A DNA stretch of 64,000 bases from an uncultured delta proteobacterium (GTDB lineage: Bacteria; Desulfobacterota; Binatia; UBA9968), in contig CAVUZH010000013.1 in the NCBI GenBank assembly GCA_963745835.1, positions 480,001 to 544,000 on the forward strand. Reading direction: 5' to 3'. Every line of letters starts with the position of its first letter. Position 1 is the stretch's first letter. This document shows positions 9,144 to 57,012 of the stretch, one piece after another. Both the position numbers and the translations under genes were made by a program. The notes under the pieces are model-generated. The model had not been told where the DNA came from, made no database searches, and saw only the letters and a list, made by a program, of their open reading frames with translations.

Positions 9144-9211
9144 GACTGGAACCACTTGAACCATTTGAACTACTAATTCCATCAGTTTCAGTGAGTCCAA
9201 TCGTTCCAGCC
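9144..9211. repeat. T(T/G)GAAC 9-nt-period repeat element, inverted arrangement
   Basis: gactggaac-cacttgaac-catttgaac followed by a degenerate reverse-complement arm agtttcagtgagtccaatcgttccag. Confidence 0.7.
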
Positions 9212-11001: not shown

Positions 11002-11071
11002 GATTGGAACTGTTGGAACGCTGGAACGTAACGCCGCAAATTGCAAACGTTAAAATCGTTCGAGACGGTCC
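11002..11071. repeat. T(T/G)GAAC short-period repeat element, degenerate inverted arrangement
   Basis: gattggaac-tgttggaac-gctggaacg, then an eroded opposite-strand arm cgttaaaatcgttcgagacggtcc. Confidence 0.55.
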
Positions 11072-17255: not shown

Positions 17256-17958
17256 GCGCGGCGCTCTTTGAATCGCAGGCGGCCGCAATCGAGGAGAAAA
17301 TCTTCAGTCCGTCATCGCTGCCGAGGAGCTTGTTGCAGGCATCTTCCGGATGGGGCATCAACCCGAAGACGTTGCGCCTTTCATTGCAGACGCCGGCGAT
17401 GTCATCCACCGAGCCATTGGGGTTGGCAGCCGGCGAAGTTTTTCCTTTCGCATTAACGTAGCGAAAGAGAACCTGGCGATTCCGCTGTAATCGCTCTAAA
17501 GTCAGTTCATCGGCGTGATAACGTCCTTCGCCGTGCTTGACCGGGATTTTTAGCAGCTGCCCTTTTTTTAGCTGAGAAGTAAACGGCGCGTCGGTCTCTT
17601 CCACCCGCAGCCAGGTTTGTTGACAAACGAACTTCAGGCCGGCATTGCGCACCAGCGCTCCGGGGAGCAGTCCCGCTTCACAGAGGATTTGGAAGCCGTT
17701 GCAAATGCCGAGCACGATGCCGCCTTCTTGAGCGAATTTCTCAACGCCGCGCATGATCGGTGAAAAACGCGCCACGGCGCCGCAGCGGAGATAATCGCCA
17801 TAGGAAAAGCCTCCCGGGAGCACCAGACAATCGAAATGTCCGGCAAGCTCATCCTTGTGCCAAAGAAACTTGACCTTCTGGCCCATCTCTCGTTTGAGAC
17901 TATCGAAAACATCCTGATCATCGCACGAGCCTGGAAAAACAATCACACCCCAACGCAC
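17248..17958 (-). CDS. purQ: FGAM synthase glutaminase subunit PurQ
   Basis: [51 protein letters not shown]. Confidence 0.95.
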
Positions 17959-18073
17959 ACTATCGCTCCTCTATTTCTAACTTTGAGACAATCGAAAACA
18001 TCCTGATCGTCGCACGAGCCGGGAAAAACAATCACGCCCCAACGCACGCTTCGCTCCCCTATTCCACTTTGAG
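17893..18073. repeat. Imperfect 89-bp tandem duplication of the purQ RBS and first ~22 codons
   Basis: Units 17893-17981 and 17982-18067; tttgag occurs at 17893, 17982 and 18068. Confidence 0.9.
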
Positions 18074-39812: not shown

Positions 39813-40081
39813 CACAGAGAAAGAGATACCGCGGTTTTGAGCGTGATCGAGTTCTCTGAGCATACCGGCCGAGCCAAATCCCCGGAAGCCAAACTGCCGG
39901 CCAAAAATTCCTGCCAATCGTCAGAAGCCGCAATTACGAAATTATCACCGATTTGTTTGTTGCAACGACACGCCTATTCACATTGATCGTGCGATTGACC
40001 AACGGTCGGTTCGACGGTATAGCTCTCATAAGCGATCCATCTCGCTTTCGTCTTCGTGCTCATGGTAAATTCGTGCTCTCC

Positions 40082-40672
40082 ATGTTTTCGCTGCTGTTCT
40101 TCTTTAGTACGACCGCGCTGATCTTGGCTCAGGCGCCTGCCACGGCGGCGGCGTCCACTAGCGATGCGTCGGCGAAGAAACTCAACTGGGACGAAAAATT
40201 CGAGGGCGTGGTCCACGACGCCAACAACATCGCTGGGTTTGTCGCCGAGTACCGTTGGCTGAGTAATTATTACCTCTGCAGAGTCGAATGGGACGGCCGC
40301 GTCTACGGCTCGGCGGAGGCGGCCTACCATTCGGGCAAGTATCCGGTGGCGGACCGTGACGTGTTCACTCGGCTCGATCCCGATCCGGCGCGAAAACTGT
40401 CGCGCACCAAACGCTATGACACCGCGGCCTGGGAGATCCGCAAGGTGTCGACGATGCGCGCGGTCGTATGGGCAAAATTTTCGCAGAATCCGGAGCTTGC
40501 GACAAAGCTCCTGGCGACCGGAAGCCGCCACCTTGAGGAAACCAATTGGTGGGGTGATAAAATTTGGGGCGTTTACCGAGGCGAAGGGCAGAACCTCCTT
40601 GGCAAAATCATAATGGAAACCCGCGCCCGGCTCGCAAGGGCGAGCACCGCTGCACCGGTCAGAACGAAATGA
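40082..40672 (+). CDS. NADAR (YbiA-like) family protein with a hydrophobic N-terminal leader
   Basis: YRWLSNYY, SAEAAYHSGK, AKFSQNPELATKLLATG, LEETNWWGDKIWG, GQNLLGKIIM. Start uncertain. Confidence 0.85.
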   Translation: MFSLLFFFSTTALILAQAPATAAASTSDASAKKLNWDEKFEGVVHDANNIAGFVAEYRWLSNYYLCRVEWDGRVYGSAEAAYHSGKYPVADRDVFTRLDPDPARKLSRTKRYDTAAWEIRKVSTMRAVVWAKFSQNPELATKLLATGSRHLEETNWWGDKIWGVYRGEGQNLLGKIIMETRARLARASTAAPVRTK

Positions 40673-40839
40673 TCCGCCGCCCGCGCGGCACCCTCTTTAC
40701 CTTCGTCCGCGTCGAGGGTAATCACATCCAGTGGTAGCCGGTCTGTCCTGGAGTATGAGTTGAGCACGAACACCGAACGGCCATTGAGCTGCCGTAATTG
40801 AGTCAAGTCTACGAGGCTTGTCGGCAGCCGCTCAGCTCG

Positions 40840-42288
40840 CTAGGGTAACGGCGTCTTCAGTCCCAGCTCGTCGGCCACCGCGTGCTCGACGACCGTGCCT
40901 TTGAAGAAATCCAGATTGTTGCGCGTGTGTAGGCGCGCGGCGTTGCTAAACGTGAATTCCCGGAAATCCTGCTCGGTCACGAAGCCTTTTTCGATCAGCT
41001 CGAACGCTTCAGGCATCACCTGCCTGAAATCGGGCACGTCGAAATGCGTGAAGTCGGAGCTGAACACCGGCCGAAGCCGGACGCCCATGCGCGGATCGAA
41101 GGCCCACATCGTTGCGCGATCGTCCGCCTCGCAGCCGAAGTAAAAGTTGTTAGAGAATACCGCGCGCACATCCTCCTTTGAGTTGATTCCTGCGGCTTCA
41201 AAATCATCGGCAACATGCTCAGGCCGGCTCAGCTCTTCCAGGCTGCACTCGGGGCGGAATGCGTCCAAGTTGTTCATGATCGCGGCGGCGTTGGCTTTCA
41301 GTCTTTGATCGCCATATCGGTCGATCAGCCGGTGCATCTCGGCAGTGCTTGTTGCGCTCGGATACTGCAGCCCATCACGGCGGCGCTTCTCCCAGTGTTC
41401 GATTAAGTCGAGACACAACTGACAGGCCCAGCTTACGCCGCCTTCCATGAAGCCGAAATTGAGGGTTGGGTAGCGGCGCGCGAGGCCACCCAGAAAGACA
41501 CCGCGGGCGAAGGCGTGATTTGATTCGGCAAAGTGGCCGACGTGATTGTAGGTGAAATTGCTGATCGAGGCGCGATCCTGCCAACGGCCGCTGCCGGCGT
41601 GTTGAGTTACGGCCACGCCGAGCTCGACGCAGCGCCGCCAGAGCGGCTCATAGTCGTAGGGGCTGTCGAGAGCAATGGTATCGATGTACCAGGCGGCCTT
41701 CTGCCGGTCGATTCCCTCCGCCGCGCTTGGGATCGGTCGCTCCTCGTTGCCGCGCAGCATGATCGCTTTGAAACCTCGCTCTCTAACGGCGTATTCCAAC
41801 TCCTCAAGAGCTTCGTCCGGCGTATGGGAGGGAATCATCGCTACCGGCGCAAACCTTGCGGCAAATGGCGCGAACATATCAGCCGTCATCATGTTGTAGG
41901 CACGGATGGCGGCCCTGTGCAGGTCGTCCTGAGCAATGCCGTTGATGCTGAGCCCGAAGCTCGGATAGATCAACGCGAAATCGATACCCAATTCGGGCAG
42001 ACGCTCATTCAACAAAGCCGGCAGCAGCGCCGTGGCTTTATCGAGCGTATTGCTGGTCACACCCCACCAGATCGTGCGACGCAGACGTTTGTGCTGCCGT
42101 TCCGACCAGGTCGCTCCATACCAACTTTGATTGCGCTGCCACAGCCCTCTAATTTGATCGACAGATCCAGCGCCGCCTACTTCGCGGAGGTATTCGAGAA
42201 AGATCGGAATCGGCTCCATCCAGTGTCCGTCACCGTCGATCACCGGATGCTTGAGCGCATCGTGTATTTCTGCTGCTCGATTTTCCAT
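40840..42288 (-). CDS. Amidohydrolase family protein
   Basis: VIDGDGHWME, RAYN, YEPLW, RRYPTLNFGFMEGGVSW, FSSDFTHFD. Confidence 0.85.
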   Translation of the reverse strand: MENRAAEIHDALKHPVIDGDGHWMEPIPIFLEYLREVGGAGSVDQIRGLWQRNQSWYGATWSERQHKRLRRTIWWGVTSNTLDKATALLPALLNERLPELGIDFALIYPSFGLSINGIAQDDLHRAAIRAYNMMTADMFAPFAARFAPVAMIPSHTPDEALEELEYAVRERGFKAIMLRGNEERPIPSAAEGIDRQKAAWYIDTIALDSPYDYEPLWRRCVELGVAVTQHAGSGRWQDRASISNFTYNHVGHFAESNHAFARGVFLGGLARRYPTLNFGFMEGGVSWACQLCLDLIEHWEKRRRDGLQYPSATSTAEMHRLIDRYGDQRLKANAAAIMNNLDAFRPECSLEELSRPEHVADDFEAAGINSKEDVRAVFSNNFYFGCEADDRATMWAFDPRMGVRLRPVFSSDFTHFDVPDFRQVMPEAFELIEKGFVTEQDFREFTFSNAARLHTRNNLDFFKGTVVEHAVADELGLKTPLP

Positions 42289-42372
42289 GGTCACCGCTCC
42301 TCTCGCTAGTCTCTTTTCTCTTTTAGCGACTAGCCAGTAAGTCGTCAATCGCAATTGCCTGGAACAAAGATG

Positions 42373-42581
42373 CGTTCCAACCGTTCCACCGCTGCGCTCC
42401 GTTCCAGTCGTTCCAATCGTCTAATGAAACAACTTTGTTTTCGTGCGTTGAACGACTTGAACGATTGAAACCAAGCAGCGATTGCCACGACTGGAACCGT
42501 TGGAACGGTGAAACGGCTTGAATCCCTGGAACGAGCCTAGCGAATCGGACTTGAACCTTTAAAGGTCGAACCTTTGAACCC
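42373..42581. repeat. Composite T(T/G)GAAC element: inverted arm 42373-42420 plus copy 1 of the ~135-bp element (42446-42581)
   Basis: cgttccaaccgttccaccgctgcgctccgttccagtcgttccaatcg, then cgttgaacgacttgaacg...gactggaaccgttggaacggtgaaacggcttgaatccctggaacgagcctagcgaatcggacttgaacc...tttgaacc. Confidence 0.85.
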
Positions 42582-42727
42582 CGGTAGGTGACTTCATCTT
42601 GTTTCTAGTGCCTTGGAGTCGTGGCGCAACAATTTTCCTTTACGAGCCAAATTGGAATGAAAATCGGCAAGGATAAGTTAAAACTTGATTGTTTTCAGCC
42701 ATTCGGGATAAAACGCTATGCGTTACC

Positions 42728-44362
42728 ATGTTTCTGAGACGTGGTATGTTCGCCACATTGACGAAGTTTAGTCTGAGAGTCGTTATTCCAAGCGTTTGCC
42801 TCATCGTCCTTGTGAATGTGCTTCTCTCCGAACATCATGAAAGCAATCCACAAAAACGTATCGAAGTGGCGTTGGCCTCAAGAAATAATGCCGGTGCAAA
42901 AGCGGAATACCACAAGCTGATTGAGGACAATTTCTTTAAGGTCGAGTATCACAGAGGCTATATCGGCAGCCACCTCGGGCAACCTCGGCGGGGAAGCGCT
43001 TTTTCGGCGCAAGCCAATCAGGATATAATTGAGGGGTATCGACGTTACGCGTCGTCGAGCATTCCCGAAGTGTCTGACATCGGGTACTACGGACTTGGCT
43101 ATTTCTACAGTCTTCAGAGAGACGACGAGCGGGCAAGAGAGAATTTCCAGAAAGTTCGCAATACTCAACTCCCCTACCTGAACAACTCTCTTGGAGCGGT
43201 CTATCGCAGGACGGGTCGTCTCGATCTGGCGAAGCAATACTTCCATCGAGAGATCCAGGTTGGAGGTAATGTAGCGGGAGCTTATTCGGGCCTTGCTCAG
43301 ATATTTTACGCCACAAAGCAGTACAGTGATCTCAAGCAAATTGCTGCCCGTGCAGAAGCAAAAAACTCTTTTCCACCGCGTATCCGACGATTTCTGGCGC
43401 TGCGAGAGGGAAGGTATGCAGACTATTTATGGGAAGCTTCGGTTTTCCGCCGCGTGACTGCCTACGGTCTCCTCGGCGTCGTGCTGATACTTGGCACCTG
43501 GTTTGTCTATCTGCAGCAGATCGAAGGGTTCGAGCCGAAACGCCTTGGCTACACCGTAATAGTCCTGGCCGGAGGGATGATTTTTTGTTGCTTTGTAGTG
43601 CCGCTCTACGATGCCTTTGCCTTCGGATCCCGCGCCAACGGCACGGACCAAAAGGATCTCCTTTATTACGTATTAGTCGTCGGGCTCATTGAGGAAGCGT
43701 TAAAGATCATTCCCGTGCTCCTGGTCATGTGGCTGACCCGTGCGATCGATGAGCCTTTGGACTACATCATCTACGGCTCTATATCGGCGCTCGGTTTCGC
43801 CTTCATGGAAAACCTGCTCCCCGGCTATGAATGGAGACTCGGAGCAATCTCCTCCCGCGCATTGGGGGCTGTTGTCCTGCACATGACATTCACTTCATTA
43901 ATTATGTACGGACTCTTCTATAGCAGGTACCGCGCCCAGAAGAAGCCGCTTCAGTATTTTCTTCTCGCCTTTGGAGCAGCATGCGTCCTCCATGGGATCC
44001 TTGACTTCTCAGTCGACAGAGGCTGGAGCATTCTCGGTCTTCTAATATCGACTTATTGCATCCGGCAGTACGGTGTCTTTATCAATTCCACCCTGAACCT
44101 TTCCAAGCGTAACCCGGAGCGGCCGAAGCGACAACTTGAACTCACCGAGTATCTCTGCTATTCGCTGGCCGCCCTCGTGATGCTGCAGTATATCGCAATG
44201 GCGGTAAAGTACGGCCCGGGCAATGCAAACTCAACTTTCTTCTGGACAGCTTTTTTCTCGTATTTTTGGCTGTGCGTAATTCTGGTAAACCTCGGGACCT
44301 TTGACATGCGAAAGCGTCCATGGCTGCCACTTTTGAGGAGGAAAGCAACTTCTCACGCATGA
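42728..44362 (+). CDS. PrsW-family glutamic intramembrane protease with an N-terminal TPR-like domain
   Basis: GLIEEALK, ALGFAFMENL, HMTFT, LHGILD; TPR-like YYGLGYFY...ARENFQK and NNSLGAVYRRTGRLDLAKQYF. Start 42728 or 42746. Confidence 0.82.
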   Translation: MFLRRGMFATLTKFSLRVVIPSVCLIVLVNVLLSEHHESNPQKRIEVALASRNNAGAKAEYHKLIEDNFFKVEYHRGYIGSHLGQPRRGSAFSAQANQDIIEGYRRYASSSIPEVSDIGYYGLGYFYSLQRDDERARENFQKVRNTQLPYLNNSLGAVYRRTGRLDLAKQYFHREIQVGGNVAGAYSGLAQIFYATKQYSDLKQIAARAEAKNSFPPRIRRFLALREGRYADYLWEASVFRRVTAYGLLGVVLILGTWFVYLQQIEGFEPKRLGYTVIVLAGGMIFCCFVVPLYDAFAFGSRANGTDQKDLLYYVLVVGLIEEALKIIPVLLVMWLTRAIDEPLDYIIYGSISALGFAFMENLLPGYEWRLGAISSRALGAVVLHMTFTSLIMYGLFYSRYRAQKKPLQYFLLAFGAACVLHGILDFSVDRGWSILGLLISTYCIRQYGVFINSTLNLSKRNPERPKRQLELTEYLCYSLAALVMLQYIAMAVKYGPGNANSTFFWTAFFSYFWLCVILVNLGTFDMRKRPWLPLLRRKATSHA

Positions 44363-44447
44363 CTCAGCAGAAATGCAGAACTTGCGTGATTGTTTGACGA
44401 CTAAAATGGTCCCTTTACTGCCTGTTGCTCCTGCCTGATGTCTGTTT

Positions 44448-44578
44448 GGTTGAACGGCTTGAACGAATTGAACCCAGCAAAACGCACTGGATCGGTTGGA
44501 ACATTTGGAGCGGCTTAAATCCCTGGAACGAGCGCAGCGAATCTGACCTTGAACTTTTGGACCTTGAACTGTTGAACT
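44448..44578 (+). repeat. Copy 2 of the ~135-bp T(T/G)GAAC element
   Basis: ggttgaacggcttgaacgaattgaacc...cggcttaaatccctggaacgagcgcagcgaatctgaccttgaacttttggaccttgaactgttgaac. Confidence 0.85.
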
Positions 44579-44707
44579 CCCGTTACATCTGCTGCCCTTG
44601 ACTACTTCTGTCTGTTTGCCTAGTGTTCGGCCCAATCAGTGCTGGCAAGCTTAGTGCTCACGAAAAATCTTCGATACCAGGAATCGCCAAGGAAGTGGAG
44701 ATCCTAC

Positions 44708-45712
44708 ATGCCAGGGCGGCTCTTTCCCAGATCGATTGAAATTTTTGTACTGATCGCGTGTGTCCTGGCGGCAGTCCCTGGACTATCGGTGTCGGCGGAA
44801 TCGCCGTCCAAAACTATTCATTCCGTTACTAACGTCAGGCTGGCCACGCCTCCACCATCACTCAGCTATTTGCCTATCCATGTGGCGCTCCAGAAAGGGT
44901 TCTTTGCAAAACGCGGCTTTGATGTGGAAGTCATTCAGATGGCTGCTGGACTCGCAGCTCCGGCACTGCTCAACCGGTCCATCGATTATACGACGATACC
45001 GAGCGGACCGGCTACGGCTGCCGCTCGTGGACTGCCCCTTAAGGTGGTTTGCTTCACGTCGGTAAAGCTCCAGCATGTTCTTATTGGCCGCCCGGAGATC
45101 ATGAGCGTGACCGATCTTGCGGGGAAACGGATTGGTGCCGGAAGTCTTGGAACTCTCCCCGCCTATCAGGTTCGGTTCATCATCGATAGATTCCGGCTTG
45201 GAAGCGACACGATTATTGTCCCTTTGAACTCGACTAACGACCGGATCATCGCCACGCAAAAGGGCAACGTTGATGCTGCCGTCGTGTCAGCGCCCTTCGA
45301 TTTGAAGGCTGAGGAACTGGGATTGAAACGGCTCCTGCAGATCGGGTCGATACTGCCGATCCCGCAAGCAGGACTTGCCACCACCGAAGAAAAGATAAAA
45401 ACCAGACGGCACGAAGTCATTGAGTTCCTCAAAGCTACGAACGAAGGCCTCGATTACACTTGGAGCCAGCGGGAAGGCACTATTGATATCATCGCGAAGT
45501 GGATGAACTTAAATCGATCGTTAGCTGTAAGAGTCTACGAATCCGTGCGCGACACTTACTCGCAAAACGGCATCCCTTCCCAAGAGCAAACCAACGCCTA
45601 TATAGCCATGCTGAGTGCGACGGCAGCTCTGAAGGGAGACGTCTCCAGCGCTTCCATTTTCGATTTTACCCTTGCCGCCGAGGCGGCCAAAGAAATGACT
45701 GCAAAGAAGTAG
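44708..45712 (+). CDS. ABC transporter substrate-binding protein, SsuA/NMT1-like
   Basis: Signal peptide, PIHVALQKGFFAKRGFDVE, DLAGKRIG, GNVDAA, IFDFTL. Confidence 0.85.
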   Translation: MPGRLFPRSIEIFVLIACVLAAVPGLSVSAESPSKTIHSVTNVRLATPPPSLSYLPIHVALQKGFFAKRGFDVEVIQMAAGLAAPALLNRSIDYTTIPSGPATAAARGLPLKVVCFTSVKLQHVLIGRPEIMSVTDLAGKRIGAGSLGTLPAYQVRFIIDRFRLGSDTIIVPLNSTNDRIIATQKGNVDAAVVSAPFDLKAEELGLKRLLQIGSILPIPQAGLATTEEKIKTRRHEVIEFLKATNEGLDYTWSQREGTIDIIAKWMNLNRSLAVRVYESVRDTYSQNGIPSQEQTNAYIAMLSATAALKGDVSSASIFDFTLAAEAAKEMTAKK

Positions 45713-45947
45713 AGGGAAATAACACCGGTGGTGGAAGAGAATCTTGCCGATACCAAACTGCATGTGCAACATGCTCTGTGACATCCTCGAGAGGCAACCG
45801 GTGTTTGTACGCCAAGATGATCGGCCACTACTGACGCCAAGATTCAAATGCATTCGCAACTAACCAACTTCGGACTTCTCTGATCCGATCGGTTAAATAT
45901 TTTGAACGCACCGATTGAATTTTTTTGGTTTAACTCGGAGCAAGCTA

Positions 45948-46087
45948 TTTTGAACGAGTTGAAGCCACGAAAACACTGGAGCGATTGCAACGACTGGGAA
46001 CCGTTGGAATGGTTGAAACGGGTTGAATCCACTTAGCCAAGTAGCAGCCAATCTGATCTTGAACTCTTGAACTTTGAACGTTGAACC
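45948..46087 (+). repeat. Copy 3 of the ~135-bp T(T/G)GAAC element
   Basis: agcgattgcaacgactgggaaccgttggaatggttgaaacgggttgaatcc...aatctgatcttgaactcttgaactttgaacgttgaacc. Confidence 0.85.
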
Positions 46088-46091
46088 GCTG

Positions 46092-47198
46092 CTACGTGGC
46101 AACTTTCTGTCGTTGCCCCGTCTGTGAAGCGCGCATAATCGTATCCAACGTGCGATGACGGCGCACTGCGTGATCGAAGTCGGTCTCGATAGCCGAGCCG
46201 GTGCGTATTGCCTCGGCAAACTTGACCCACATCTGGCCCACTTCGTAGGCGGGACCGTCCGTGCGCACGGTTTCGGGCACCCACTTGAATCGCTCCGGCA
46301 CGGTCAACTCCTGCAGTACCTTGTCGTCTTTCCGTCCGCCCATAATTTTACGCTGCTGCTCCCCGCCACCCTCGCCGCCGCCGATCATCGCCAGCGTGCC
46401 CTCCCTGCCGTAAATCTCCAGCCGATGCCCGCTACCGTGATACGGATGCACGCCGCAGTAGGCATTAACGATGGCGCCGTTTTCGAAGCGGCCGTGAACC
46501 GCGATGTTGTCGGGTGAGGTGACGTCCACGTATCTTTTGGTGTCGCTCTCGAACCATTGAGGGACCTGCGTACTGACCATCGCCGAGAGTTCGGCCAGTT
46601 CGCCGACCACCATGCACATGGCGTCGAACACGTGGCCGAACGTAATCGTCAGCGTGTTCGCGCCCAAGGTGACATCGCGCTGCCAGGTGCGGTCCGAAGG
46701 GCGGGTTAACACACCGCTACCCATAAGCGTCATATTCACAGCCAGCATCTGCCCGACGTAATCTTGCTGAATCAACTCGCGCATGTACAGATAAGCGGGC
46801 GACGCGCGGCGCTGCAAGCCGACCATGGTGCGAAGGTTTTTCTGGCGCGCCAGCGCCGCCAGATCTTCGGCCTCTTTGGTATTCGCGCCGAGTGGCCATT
46901 CGCAGAAAACGTGCTTGCCCGCTTCAATGGCGTGTTTCGTGAGTTCGTAGTGCGCCGGCACCCGCACTGCGACCGCCACAACTTCGACCTGCATATCCGC
47001 ATTTAGCTCTTTGTCGTTGCCGTACGCGCGCATCACGCCAAACTTATCGGCCGCTGCGTGCGCGGTATCCGCATGCGCCGTGCACACGGCGTAGAGCTCG
47101 GCTTCGGGCACGCCCGTCAACGCCGGCGCATGCGCTCGCGGTCCCCATCTGCCCCCTGCTCCAATGAGTCCTACGCGGATTGGATTGAATTGGGTCAT
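46092..47198 (-). CDS. Gfo/Idh/MocA-family oxidoreductase
   Basis: IRVGLIGA, HYEL, AGKHVFCEWPL, GLQRR, LEIYGREG. Confidence 0.9.
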   Translation of the reverse strand: MTQFNPIRVGLIGAGGRWGPRAHAPALTGVPEAELYAVCTAHADTAHAAADKFGVMRAYGNDKELNADMQVEVVAVAVRVPAHYELTKHAIEAGKHVFCEWPLGANTKEAEDLAALARQKNLRTMVGLQRRASPAYLYMRELIQQDYVGQMLAVNMTLMGSGVLTRPSDRTWQRDVTLGANTLTITFGHVFDAMCMVVGELAELSAMVSTQVPQWFESDTKRYVDVTSPDNIAVHGRFENGAIVNAYCGVHPYHGSGHRLEIYGREGTLAMIGGGEGGGEQQRKIMGGRKDDKVLQELTVPERFKWVPETVRTDGPAYEVGQMWVKFAEAIRTGSAIETDFDHAVRRHRTLDTIMRASQTGQRQKVAT

Positions 47199-47445
47199 GG
47201 TTTCCCTCTTGTAAAATGAATTAAATTTATCGGCGCAACGCAACGAAATCGGCAAAGATGTCACAGCGCCAGTTCAGACTCTTACGTTATATCAAACTTA
47301 GAAAAAAGTCTGAGCTAGACGCGCGCCGTTACGTTGACTAAACTTGTCACAGACAGCGTGAGTTGTAGCTCGGCAGCGATACGGAACGAGTCCGGAAAAA
47401 TCGCGTCGAATTTTTGGCTAACCACCATATCGATAATGCGAACCG

Positions 47446-48438
47446 CTAGAACCGCCCTTCTTTCTCCATCCTGCGCACCGCGCTGTCTTCGATTAACTCT
47501 TCCGCTTTAAGGCGACGAATCTTCTCGTTGTTGACGCCCAGCAGACGGATGACATTACGAATGCCATCGGCGCTGGGGTAAATCTTACGTTCGTACAGAT
47601 TGACCATTGTGCGATAGCCATCTTCGGCATCTTCGATCCGTCTAAAGCGCAGCGCTTTGGCGAGACTCTTGGTAACCTGGCTCTTGTTATCAGGATTGCG
47701 GATGAACGCGACGCTATCCAGTAAGGCTCTGAGCACACTGTCCACTGCGGCGGGAGACGACGTGACGAAGCTCCGCCGCGCCATCAAGCCTGAGCCCTGA
47801 TAGGGTATCGGCAACTTCTCGCTGTCAGCGAGGACGGTGAAGCCTTTGCCCTCGAGCATCTTGCCGAAGGTGTAACCTAGGAACGACGCATCTACAGTGC
47901 CGTTGAGCACACCCTGGGCCATCACCGCCTGCTCGCCCAACGTTCTGAATTGAATTTTGTCTCGCTCGGGGACCAACCCCCAGTAATCCAGCATCAACAT
48001 CGAGAAAATCCATCCGCCGCCGCTCAAGCTGTTGACCCCGAGACTCTTGCCCTTTAACTCTGCGGGCGTTTTGATCTTTGGATTGGCCACGAACATGCCT
48101 GACAGCCGGTTAATAAATCCGGCAACAAACACCAGGTCGGCCCCTTCGGCAATCGCGCCCAGGTTCGCGCCGGAAACCGAGCCCCAGTGAAATTGAGTTT
48201 CGCCCGAGCTCAGCGCCGACATCGCCACCGGCCCATTGCGGACCTGGACGAAACTCAAATCGACGCCGTGCTTGCGAAATAAGCCCTGGTCCTGAGCTAC
48301 ATAAACCGCGCCATCGCGCTCGCTGGCCGATCCCGAGGTCATGATGATCTTGTATAACGGCGCAGCGCCTTCAGCCGGTTGAAAGGAAGGAATAAAAACA
48401 AAAAACAAGACGAGCAAATAAACCGATCGAGTTTTCAT
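47446..48438 (-). CDS. ABC transporter substrate-binding protein, SsuA/NMT1-like
   Basis: Signal peptide, YVAQDQGLFRKHGVD, ELKGKSLGV, DSAVRRMEKEG tail. Confidence 0.85.
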   Translation of the reverse strand: MKTRSVYLLVLFFVFIPSFQPAEGAAPLYKIIMTSGSASERDGAVYVAQDQGLFRKHGVDLSFVQVRNGPVAMSALSSGETQFHWGSVSGANLGAIAEGADLVFVAGFINRLSGMFVANPKIKTPAELKGKSLGVNSLSGGGWIFSMLMLDYWGLVPERDKIQFRTLGEQAVMAQGVLNGTVDASFLGYTFGKMLEGKGFTVLADSEKLPIPYQGSGLMARRSFVTSSPAAVDSVLRALLDSVAFIRNPDNKSQVTKSLAKALRFRRIEDAEDGYRTMVNLYERKIYPSADGIRNVIRLLGVNNEKIRRLKAEELIEDSAVRRMEKEGRF

Positions 48439-54323: not shown

Positions 54324-54422
54324 GAGTTCCAAATGTTCCAATCGTTTGAATGCATGAAGTGACAGAGCCTCCGAGCGCTTAAACAGTTGGAACGTTTGGA
54401 ACCACTGGAACATTTGGAACTT
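54324..54422. repeat. TGGAAC 9-nt-period element with a perfect 16-bp inverted repeat
   Basis: agttccaaatgttcca (54325-54340) and tggaacatttggaact (54406-54421); right arm cagttggaa-cgtttggaa-ccactggaa-catttggaa. Confidence 0.85.
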
Positions 54423-56836: not shown

Positions 56837-57012
56837 GTTCAAGGTTCAACCGTTCAACGTTCAACGACAGAGTAACTTGAGCAGATCGGCCAGGGTAGTA
56901 TTCCGGGGATGAACACATCAATCCTCCCTCTGACGTTGAACCTTTGAACCGTTGAACGGCTCCCGTCCACCTCAAACGCTTGAACACTCCCGTTCACCTT
57001 GAACCTGGAACG
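56837..57012. repeat. TTGAAC 7-8-nt-period element, inverted arrangement
   Basis: gttcaag-gttcaacc-gttcaac-gttcaac (56837-56865) and cgttgaacctttgaaccgttgaac (from 56934), with further ttgaac/tggaac units to 57012. Confidence 0.8.

Follow-up and report, generated by a model that had tools for sequence, protein, structure and literature searches.

Why should two unrelated genes each stand between direct copies of the same short intergenic element? The question is raised by a locus in a stretch of 64,000 nucleotides (C13:480001-544000, hereafter the window, to which positions without a contig name refer) of a 7.28-Mb, 25-contig Candidatus Binatia metagenome-assembled genome (MAG; G000). Three copies of an element of ~135 bp, all on the + strand and called here E1 (42446..42581), E2 (44448..44578) and E3 (45948..46087), bracket there a gene for a TPR-PrsW intramembrane protease and a gene for an NMT1/THI5-like periplasmic binding protein. 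A first-pass annotation of this DNA had proposed that the element may be a site that captures genes. Our results show that its modules belong to a genome-wide, strongly oriented, stop-codon-adjacent repeat class that the annotation had missed, and the comparison with related loci indicates that the two genes form a 3.7-kb, lineage-specific insertion at an element already resident at that site. The best explanation as a whole joins a duplication of this resident element, accompanying the insertion, with family-specific boundary arrays, and in our judgement it could well be correct, the case for it and the case against it being of about equal weight.

Two genes inserted at a resident element

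In E1, a block of TTGAAC hexamers with a 9-nt period is followed by a TGGAAC block, a core and a TTGAAC block with a 7-8-nt period. E2 is supported by repeat finding, tandem-repeat scan and alignment, and in E3 the 7-8-nt block (46059-46086) lies 5 nt from the stop codon of a gene for a GFO/IDH/MocA oxidoreductase (GFO). A MAFFT alignment of E1-E3 plus flanks has 181 columns with a mean column identity of 78%. Pairwise repeats connect E1 with E2 (42509-42560 / 44506-44557, 81%; 42447-42477 / 44449-44479, 84%) and E1 with E3 (42468-42494 / 45971-45997, 81%; a 17-mer at 42493 / 45997, 94%), and Tandem Repeats Finder (TRF) reports period 9 at 42448-42469 and 44450-44473 and period 7-8 at 44548-44579 and 46057-46086. 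The sequence TTGAACNNNTTGAAC, allowing at most one mismatch, occurs 7 times in the window, where shuffles gave a mean of 0.30 and reached 7 in none of 100 trials. The repeats, the alignment and the shuffle test bear out the earlier description of three same-strand copies, and the TRF periods agree with the two kinds of block it had recognized. An inverted module (42374..42415, - strand), with GTTCCA units around a GCGNAGC-type core and arms 94% complementary to 42492-42507, lies upstream of the amidohydrolase gene that flanks the locus.

The PrsW gene (42728..44362, + strand; Pfam PrsW-protease, E 5.6e-27) and the binding-protein gene (44708..45712, + strand; Pfam NMT1, E 9.9e-16) stand between an Amidohydrolase_2 gene on the left (40840..42288, - strand; Pfam E 2e-12) and the GFO gene on the right (46092..47264, - strand; Pfam E 2.6e-24). 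In the Pfam scan the open reading frame (ORF) 42689-44362 matched PrsW-protease together with weak TPR matches and the ORF 44639-45712 matched NMT1; the bracketed genes are unrelated, as first noted. Either 42728 or 42746 may be the start of the PrsW gene, and its homologue at locus L120 fits 42746.

Amidohydrolase orthologues were fetched with their surroundings from 79 related loci (75-99% aa identity), and in 21 of them the next gene upstream, co-oriented and 124-2056 nt away, is a GFO gene (75-95% identity). Neither the PrsW nor the binding-protein gene is present between the two in any of these 21 loci. The PrsW protein had no match at E<=1e-10 in 25 relatives, and the 79 loci contain no orthologue of the binding protein, only 24-27% paralogues. 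Within the genus (G004, G005 and G006) the amidohydrolase is 95-99% identical and the spacer gaps measure 228-548 nt; contig C20 of G006 is collinear with C13:380021-529710 at ~94-95% nt identity, with 440 nt where 3699 nt are found here. The same empty form appears in metagenomes: in run X13, from soil, a single contig joins 42420 to 46111 across 149 other letters, and the run also has contigs that match both inserted genes. In 14 DNA runs from 7 studies, half or more of the words sampled from the stretch were found, and the ends and loose ends of metagenome contigs accumulate at 42373-42420. As a separate observation, the collinearity of G006 stops abruptly in C20:151034-165604 and the rest of that contig is much more GC-rich, for which a rearrangement or a chimeric contig is possible.

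The empty sites are not devoid of the element, at least three forward T(T/G)GAAC hexamers being present in 17 of the 21 spacers. The inverted module is found at the same place in G004, G005, G006, L052 and L111, and L075, L097, L103 and L106 share the 7-8-nt block of E3 together with the 5-nt junction that separates it from the stop codon of GFO; L052 carries an E3-type 7-8-nt block with the downstream junction of E3. The insertion reading follows from the 21 loci in which GFO and amidohydrolase genes are adjacent without either gene and from the hexamers in most of their spacers. Since the block and junction of E3 recur in relatives, E3, or at any rate its right part, is the resident element, and E1 and E2 are extra copies. 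The right 7-8-nt block of E3 is, by the same comparison, the resident post-stop array of GFO; this array stands at C13:526091 in our tabulation of post-stop arrays, 5 nt from the stop. The patchy presence with empty sites that the annotation had asked about was thus found, in the 21 loci, 17 of them with hexamers, and in the X13 contig.

The inserted genes also differ from their flanks in composition. Among the genes of the genome they lie at the 11th (PrsW) and 37th percentile of GC content and the flanking genes at the 92nd and 97th; by codon score, the check proposed at the outset, the inserted genes lie at the 15th and 11th percentile, and the composition of the flanks ranges from the 91st to the 97th. 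The nearest relative of PrsW (L120, from a metagenome) is 63% identical in amino acids and that of the binding protein (locus L002 / G009) 70% identical in nucleotides, both in other contexts and without arrays. With respect to G004 and G006, GFO is 94-95% identical in amino acids and the amidohydrolase higher, 98-99%.

The spacer between GFO and amidohydrolase is a recurrent insertion point. In L056 it holds a DsbA-like gene and another NMT1-type binding-protein gene, in L073 an ORF of 536 aa and in L109 a small pair of antitoxin/toxin-like ORFs, and no bracketing elements surround these three insertions, which are independent of the one studied here.

Two further observations concern the PrsW gene. 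Its 3' 1146 nt (43203-44348) recur as a 99% identical, frameshifted fragment at C22:94063-95207 (L011), without bounding arrays, whose 5' end is joined via 8 shared nt to a decayed transposase-like helix-turn-helix remnant. The RNA-library run X15 yielded scattered contigs only, one of which covers 44209-44497, across the PrsW stop into E2; ends and strand are not readable from these contigs and DNA carry-over is possible, and we draw no claim on expression from them.

A family-specific class of oriented hexamer arrays

To place the modules of E1-E3 in the genome, an array was defined as at least three T(T/G)GAAC units at a period of 6-10 nt, with 40 composition-matched permuted hexamers as controls, and genes were called with a crude ORF-based caller that takes the longest ORF as start (6023 genes). 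The genome contains 133 arrays against a control mean of 0.1, and 116 of them lie outside these genes. Most have four units (73 arrays) or three (56), five being found in 4, and the intervals between units are of 9 nt (210, mostly TGGAAC), 8 nt (98) and 7 nt (35, mostly TTGAAC). Arrays of the 7-8-nt type have a conserved TCTGACG-like 5' flank. Hexamers joined via a GCGNAGC core gave 18 pattern matches, 17 of which fit the module and one of which looks like chance; the middle base varies, with 10 A, 5 C and 3 T among the 18 (e.g. C5:167532, C13:19889, C2:12665), and GCGNAGC is a sequence of very stable DNA mini-hairpins. TRF located further arrays in the window at 9145-9174, 11004-11029, 54382-54420 and 56837-56957.

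What stands out most is where the arrays lie and which way they face. For 73 of 102 intergenic clusters the closest gene edge is a 3' end. Of the arrays located no more than 30 nt behind a stop codon, 48 have GTTC(C/A)A as their sense-strand reading, against 5 in the reverse direction; at 10 nt or less the ratio is 30 to 0, and the modal distance is 5 nt. For random intergenic 33-mers, the control for post-stop placement, the corresponding values are 4.2% and 1.4%. A pre-start class has T(T/G)GAAC 4-40 nt upstream of start codons (26 of the 50 arrays evaluated), often abutting a Shine-Dalgarno-like GGAG. In both classes, then, an array read as T(T/G)GAAC heads into the neighbouring gene, a rule that E3 follows for GFO; E1 and E2 are pre-start arrays of the inserted genes. 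When orientation was compared with the strand of both neighbours no bias was seen (43 same, 38 opposite), the rule appearing only relative to the nearest stop.

More than one array is held by 22 of 108 clusters. In about 20 inverted pairs a GTTC(C/A)A array is followed by a T(T/G)GAAC array 22-118 nt away, and the spacers are unrelated. All 19 inverted pairs that were folded gave z < -2 (median -5.29, mononucleotide shuffles), while the median for 30 single arrays was -0.10.

Beyond this genome, the placement rule was replicated in G117, a member of another genus, where 330 kb contain 22 arrays, 21 of them intergenic, with 10 arrays against 2 opposite within 60 nt after stop codons. In the family of the window (f1), 76 of 87 sampled genomes have the four-unit 9-nt pattern, the number per genome being 0-176 and low in the genus g23; it is found in none of 5 and none of 28 genomes of two sister families (f2 and f3), and a reversed control gave 0 everywhere. 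Arrays are kept at orthologous sites across genera. The hexamer arrays are therefore a class specific to one family, in which intergenic DNA contains more than 100 of them per genome. These tallies, like those of the Y1-like insertion sequence (IS) treated below, include the unpublished genomes G012, G018, G100 and G106, and the BLAST comparison of 40 relatives includes G012 and G018; no conclusion rests on them. In the literature searched on hexamer repeats and on Binatia repeats we found no prior description of the class.

Binatia are abundant uncultured soil bacteria, and a repeat class that 76 of 87 sampled genomes in a single family contain, at up to 176 four-unit arrays per genome, matters for their annotation, since its arrays indicate where genes end and can interrupt assemblies. 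With regard to genome evolution, the repeats can accompany the insertion of accessory genes, and not every gene bracketed by them is a cassette.

In one relative, arrays form part of a multi-copy element. At the G086 loci L145-L153, a near-identical element of ~170 nt is present in 9 of 10 fetched loci; it consists of two head-to-head four-unit arrays 8-9 nt apart with conserved arms and looks like a recently active non-autonomous element.

What the arrays may do

For bacterial intergenic repeats these rules are unusually sharp (about four units, a fixed period, a mode of 5 nt and a strand choice of 48 to 5), and they predict a factor that reads the periodic hexamer in one direction, on RNA or on DNA. 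Tentatively, and with more room for doubt than for assent, we propose that the arrays are orientation-dependent signals at the boundaries of transcription units. Read in one direction, they would be recognized on the nascent RNA as unstructured, periodic UC-containing motifs, for instance as Rho loading sites, the GTTC(C/A)A reading offering one UC per unit in unstructured RNA immediately after the stop codon. The genome has a Rho gene. That a DNA-binding protein reads the arrays is about equally possible.

Known rut (Rho utilization) sites have no repeated consensus hexamer, are longer and are C-rich. The likeness to them is by analogy only and confined to the GTTC(C/A)A reading (48 of the 53 arrays no more than 30 nt behind a stop), in which untranslated, unstructured RNA with a regular pyrimidine-C lies behind the stop; the arrays differ from rut sites in their repeated hexamer, their shortness and the TTGAAC-type units without C excess. 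Several facts tell against a boundary signal of this kind. In the TTGAAC units C does not outnumber G, four units would make a short Rho site, termination on the sense strand leaves the arrays just upstream of start codons unexplained, and 64 of the 133 arrays are, under the crude gene calls, neither post-stop nor arm of a partner; the contigs of the RNA library cannot show 3' ends or strand.

Within E1-E3, other kinds of signal were sought and rejected. For a structured RNA or single-stranded DNA, z was 0.01 to 2.36 on both strands (200 dinucleotide shuffles); one sigma-70 promoter-like site was found where shuffles predict 2.8, and 6 terminator-like sites where they predict 4.8. The region 40000-48000 of the window had no match in Rfam at E<=1.

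Are the arrays instead purely selfish DNA of the kind of REPINs (hairpin-forming doublets of repetitive extragenic palindromic, REP, sequences) or miniature inverted-repeat transposable elements (MITEs)? Their position and orientation would then result from insertion preference and purifying selection, and the three copies at our locus would be a by-product of mobility. We consider this unlikely, though still a serious alternative, and much about the arrays would suit it. The 19 inverted pairs all fold strongly around spacers that are not conserved, as in the REPINs described as inverted doublets with poorly conserved spacer that form hairpins (PMC3116915). The near-identical element of G086, the variation in copy number from 0 to 176 among the genomes of the family and the arrays found inside decayed IS copies point the same way. 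The genome holds no high-identity, multi-copy master sequence, however, and arrays flank none of the 12 Y1_Tnp genes that pass the Pfam cut-off. Arrays also persist at orthologous sites across genera with a unit number held near four, and the 48:5 orientation and 5-nt modal distance from the stop are hard to obtain without function or very specific targeting. As to MITE features, the spacers of inverted pairs are unrelated in this genome, and a conserved multi-copy element is found in G086.

In E. coli, many REPs are found no more than ~15 nt from a stop codon. In behaviour, REP sequences, bacterial interspersed mosaic elements (BIMEs) and REPINs, with their REP-associated tyrosine transposases (RAYTs), are the closest known systems (PMC3116915, PMC3733652): like these, the arrays are short, high-copy, extragenic and lineage-specific (133 arrays, 116 outside genes), have a mosaic higher-order arrangement with frequent singlets and long persistence at orthologous sites, and form inverted doublets that fold as hairpins (19 of 19 here). 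In contrast to REPs, they contain no palindrome with a GTAG/CGTC tag but about four direct hexamers with a period of 7-9 nt and variable, unpaired spacers between units; single arrays are unstructured and strongly oriented to the adjacent gene, and no Y1/RAYT gene is flanked by them. Two defining features of the REP/REPIN class, the palindromic unit and the flanking RAYT gene, are missing. The short tandemly repeated repetitive (STRR) sequences of cyanobacteria are lineage-specific intergenic arrays of tandem heptamers, and the arrays resemble them as lineage-specific, intergenic tandem repeats of the 7-nt class; motif and host phylum differ, and here the unit number stays near four, with position and orientation defined relative to stop and start codons.

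Candidate partners for the arrays were examined among Y1 transposases. Given the 12 Y1_Tnp genes without flanking arrays, only one of which has an array, ~190 nt downstream, a RAYT/Y1 partner was rejected. A second, Y1/HUH-like IS family (267 aa when intact in relatives, 13-nt inverted ends of GGGTCGGACCAAG type) occurs in 41 of 87 f1, 1 of 5 f2 and 0 of 28 f3 genomes. Its copies end in inverted repeats of their own and are not flanked by arrays, and the family was dropped as a partner because some array-rich genomes have no IS hit (G079, with 176 arrays, and G002, with 67) and an IS-bearing genome (G024) has no arrays. All copies of this family in our genome are decayed (C2:12300-12900, C5:167100-167700, C5:170350-170750, C13:590800-591350, C22:280300-283550), and intact ones occur at L134, L135, L137, L142 and L144; several copies carry hexamer arrays in the 5' part of the coding region, at positions that differ between genomes. 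C13 also bears a classical REP/RAYT arrangement that has no relation to the hexamer arrays, two RAYT-like Y1 gene copies (681319-681729 and 690954-691379), each flanked by inverted GGGGACAGGCTACTTT-type repeats.

Origin of the three copies

E1-E3 are local copies of a single composite intergenic element, whose place in relatives is behind the stop codon of GFO and ahead of the amidohydrolase promoter region. In the left halves of the copies the identities are 0.81 (E1-E3), 0.74 (E1-E2) and 0.64 (E2-E3), and in the right halves 0.72-0.78. The linker after the first block of E2 is seen, by eye, also in the resident elements of L049 and L055, and this shared linker suggests that the three copies descend from the own element of the locus. 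At C13:385.6 kb and 491.0 kb, where the flanks are ~94-95% identical, arrays are retained in G006 yet are poorly or not alignable. Because of the locus-specific linker and this fast evolution of arrays, we favour a duplication of the resident element. Recombination inside it would have duplicated it at the insertion or insertions, possibly by Campbell-type integration of DNA with a similar element or by template switching on the hexamer repeats, and the copies would then have diverged quickly, like arrays at other sites. The element would act as a patch of repeated homology and not as the att site of a dedicated cassette machine.

The orthologous inverted array pair at C13:385596-385769 deserves mention in its own right. 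It has a period of 7-8 nt where its counterpart in G006 (C20:5610-5846) has 9 nt, its spacer is unrelated to that of G006 and its flanks are ~94% identical; the whole element has apparently been replaced in place.

Several observations speak against a duplication at the insertion. The copies are 64-81% identical by halves, yet the insertion is absent where flanks are 94-99% identical, so that duplication at the time of insertion needs very fast divergence, unless the copies arrived with the genes. The mosaic signal is weak, the right halves being about equally alike among all three copies. For the right flanks, the similarity of E1 and E2 was reached in 87 of 2000 shuffles and that of E2 and E3 in 251 of 2000, that of E1 and E3 is not significant, and the left flanks have none; as there is no clear similarity beyond the arrays, exact breakpoints are not placeable. 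A donor, a circular junction and a one-gene intermediate were not found. Two more precise versions were rejected: a duplicated unit reaching into the GFO 3' end was suggested by the alignment and was not significant in the shuffle test, and a clean mosaic from a single crossover is seen in the left halves only.

An explanation that dispenses with duplication is that each gene arrived from a related donor together with a boundary element of its own, or that the whole block came in by recombination through the flanking genes, the likeness of the copies reflecting a shared subtype or later local gene conversion. The moderate identity of the copies would then need no rapid divergence, and since arrays lie at gene boundaries genome-wide, a fragment from any relative would carry them; the deviating GC and codon score percentiles of the inserted genes and the lower similarity of GFO than of the amidohydrolase to the G004 and G006 proteins would also fit. 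What makes us doubt it is that the full composite was found at no other locus. When the genome was scanned with a profile built from E1-E3, which score ~158-164 bits by construction, the best match besides these three reached 38.5 bits, so that a fourth full copy is lacking; BLAST of the 40 relatives found no full copy either. E1 and E2 are atypically oriented for post-stop arrays and so are not ordinary 3' elements of the PrsW and binding-protein genes, and the only relatives of the two genes that we found at other loci are without arrays. We regard this explanation as rather improbable.

Coming back to the duplicated resident element, would its duplication be the work of a system that captures genes? 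Over ~510 kb of DNA collinear with the congener G006 (G006:C20 vs C13, and C13:2501-364892 vs C3:907123-1333097), we counted 17 gaps or replacements of at least 1 kb, and one of the 17, the locus studied here, borders arrays. About 2.4% of spacers carry arrays (108 clusters in 4465 spacers), and 1 in 17 would arise by chance about one time in three, so the overlap is compatible with chance. Of the six array loci in the compared blocks, five have arrays and the same neighbouring genes in G006 as here, and at C13:489-491 kb a gene between two same-direction arrays is conserved in G006. A general role in capture or as insertion site is not supported, most of the checks proposed in the annotation having turned out negative. 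From the proposal of a gene-capturing site there remain the lineage-specific insertion and the empty sites that keep the element.

The window had been described as free of recombinases and transposases, in agreement with our searches: PF00589 (tyrosine recombinases) has 13 hits in the genome and PF01797 (Y1) 14, none of them in the window, DDE transposase families not having been searched; the nearest PF00589 hit on the contig is at 754684. Integron cassettes come to mind, as there are unrelated single genes in one orientation with a repeated site between them, possibly a content that differs in close relatives, and an empty site that keeps one copy. In contrast to integrons, no integrase is nearby, the element has neither an attC bottom-strand-type fold nor RYYYAAC/GTTRRRY ends, and the elements lie mostly at conserved, non-variable gene boundaries. 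Integron membership fails because there is no integrase and no folding site; that the element is not attC had been recognized at the outset, and the missing fold signal and ends agree. Cassette variation at the locus amounts to one two-gene state, absent from 21 related loci and from the X13 contig that joins its flanks, and the insertions in L056, L073 and L109 lack the site.

A dedicated capture system in another form, in which the element is an integration site duplicated with each capture (by an att-like crossover or as an element-length target duplication) and a trans-acting enzyme is encoded elsewhere, would account for two unrelated single genes in one orientation, each between direct copies, for the empty sites with the element in relatives and in X13, for the locus-specific features that the copies have in common with resident elements of other genera and for arrays limited to one family, as a lineage-specific enzyme would predict, the multi-copy element of G086 showing that such DNA is able to proliferate; but with the chance-compatible share of large indels, the three insertions in the same spacer without elements, the unchanged array loci and the conserved bracketed gene, a window without tyrosine recombinase or Y1 transposase, copies 64-81% and not nearly 100% identical, and homologues of PrsW and of the binding protein elsewhere without arrays (one example each), it is very improbable. 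Just as hard to credit is the joint reading in which arrays mark the edges of coding regions for an array-reading factor and also serve as capture sites duplicating the whole element, and we would grant very little to its corollary that the three-copy locus exemplifies a new recombinase-independent or trans-encoded gene capture.

Apart from these elements, the window has a tandem repeat at 17893-18063, made up of 1.9 copies of an 89-nt unit with 91% match (TRF score 291).

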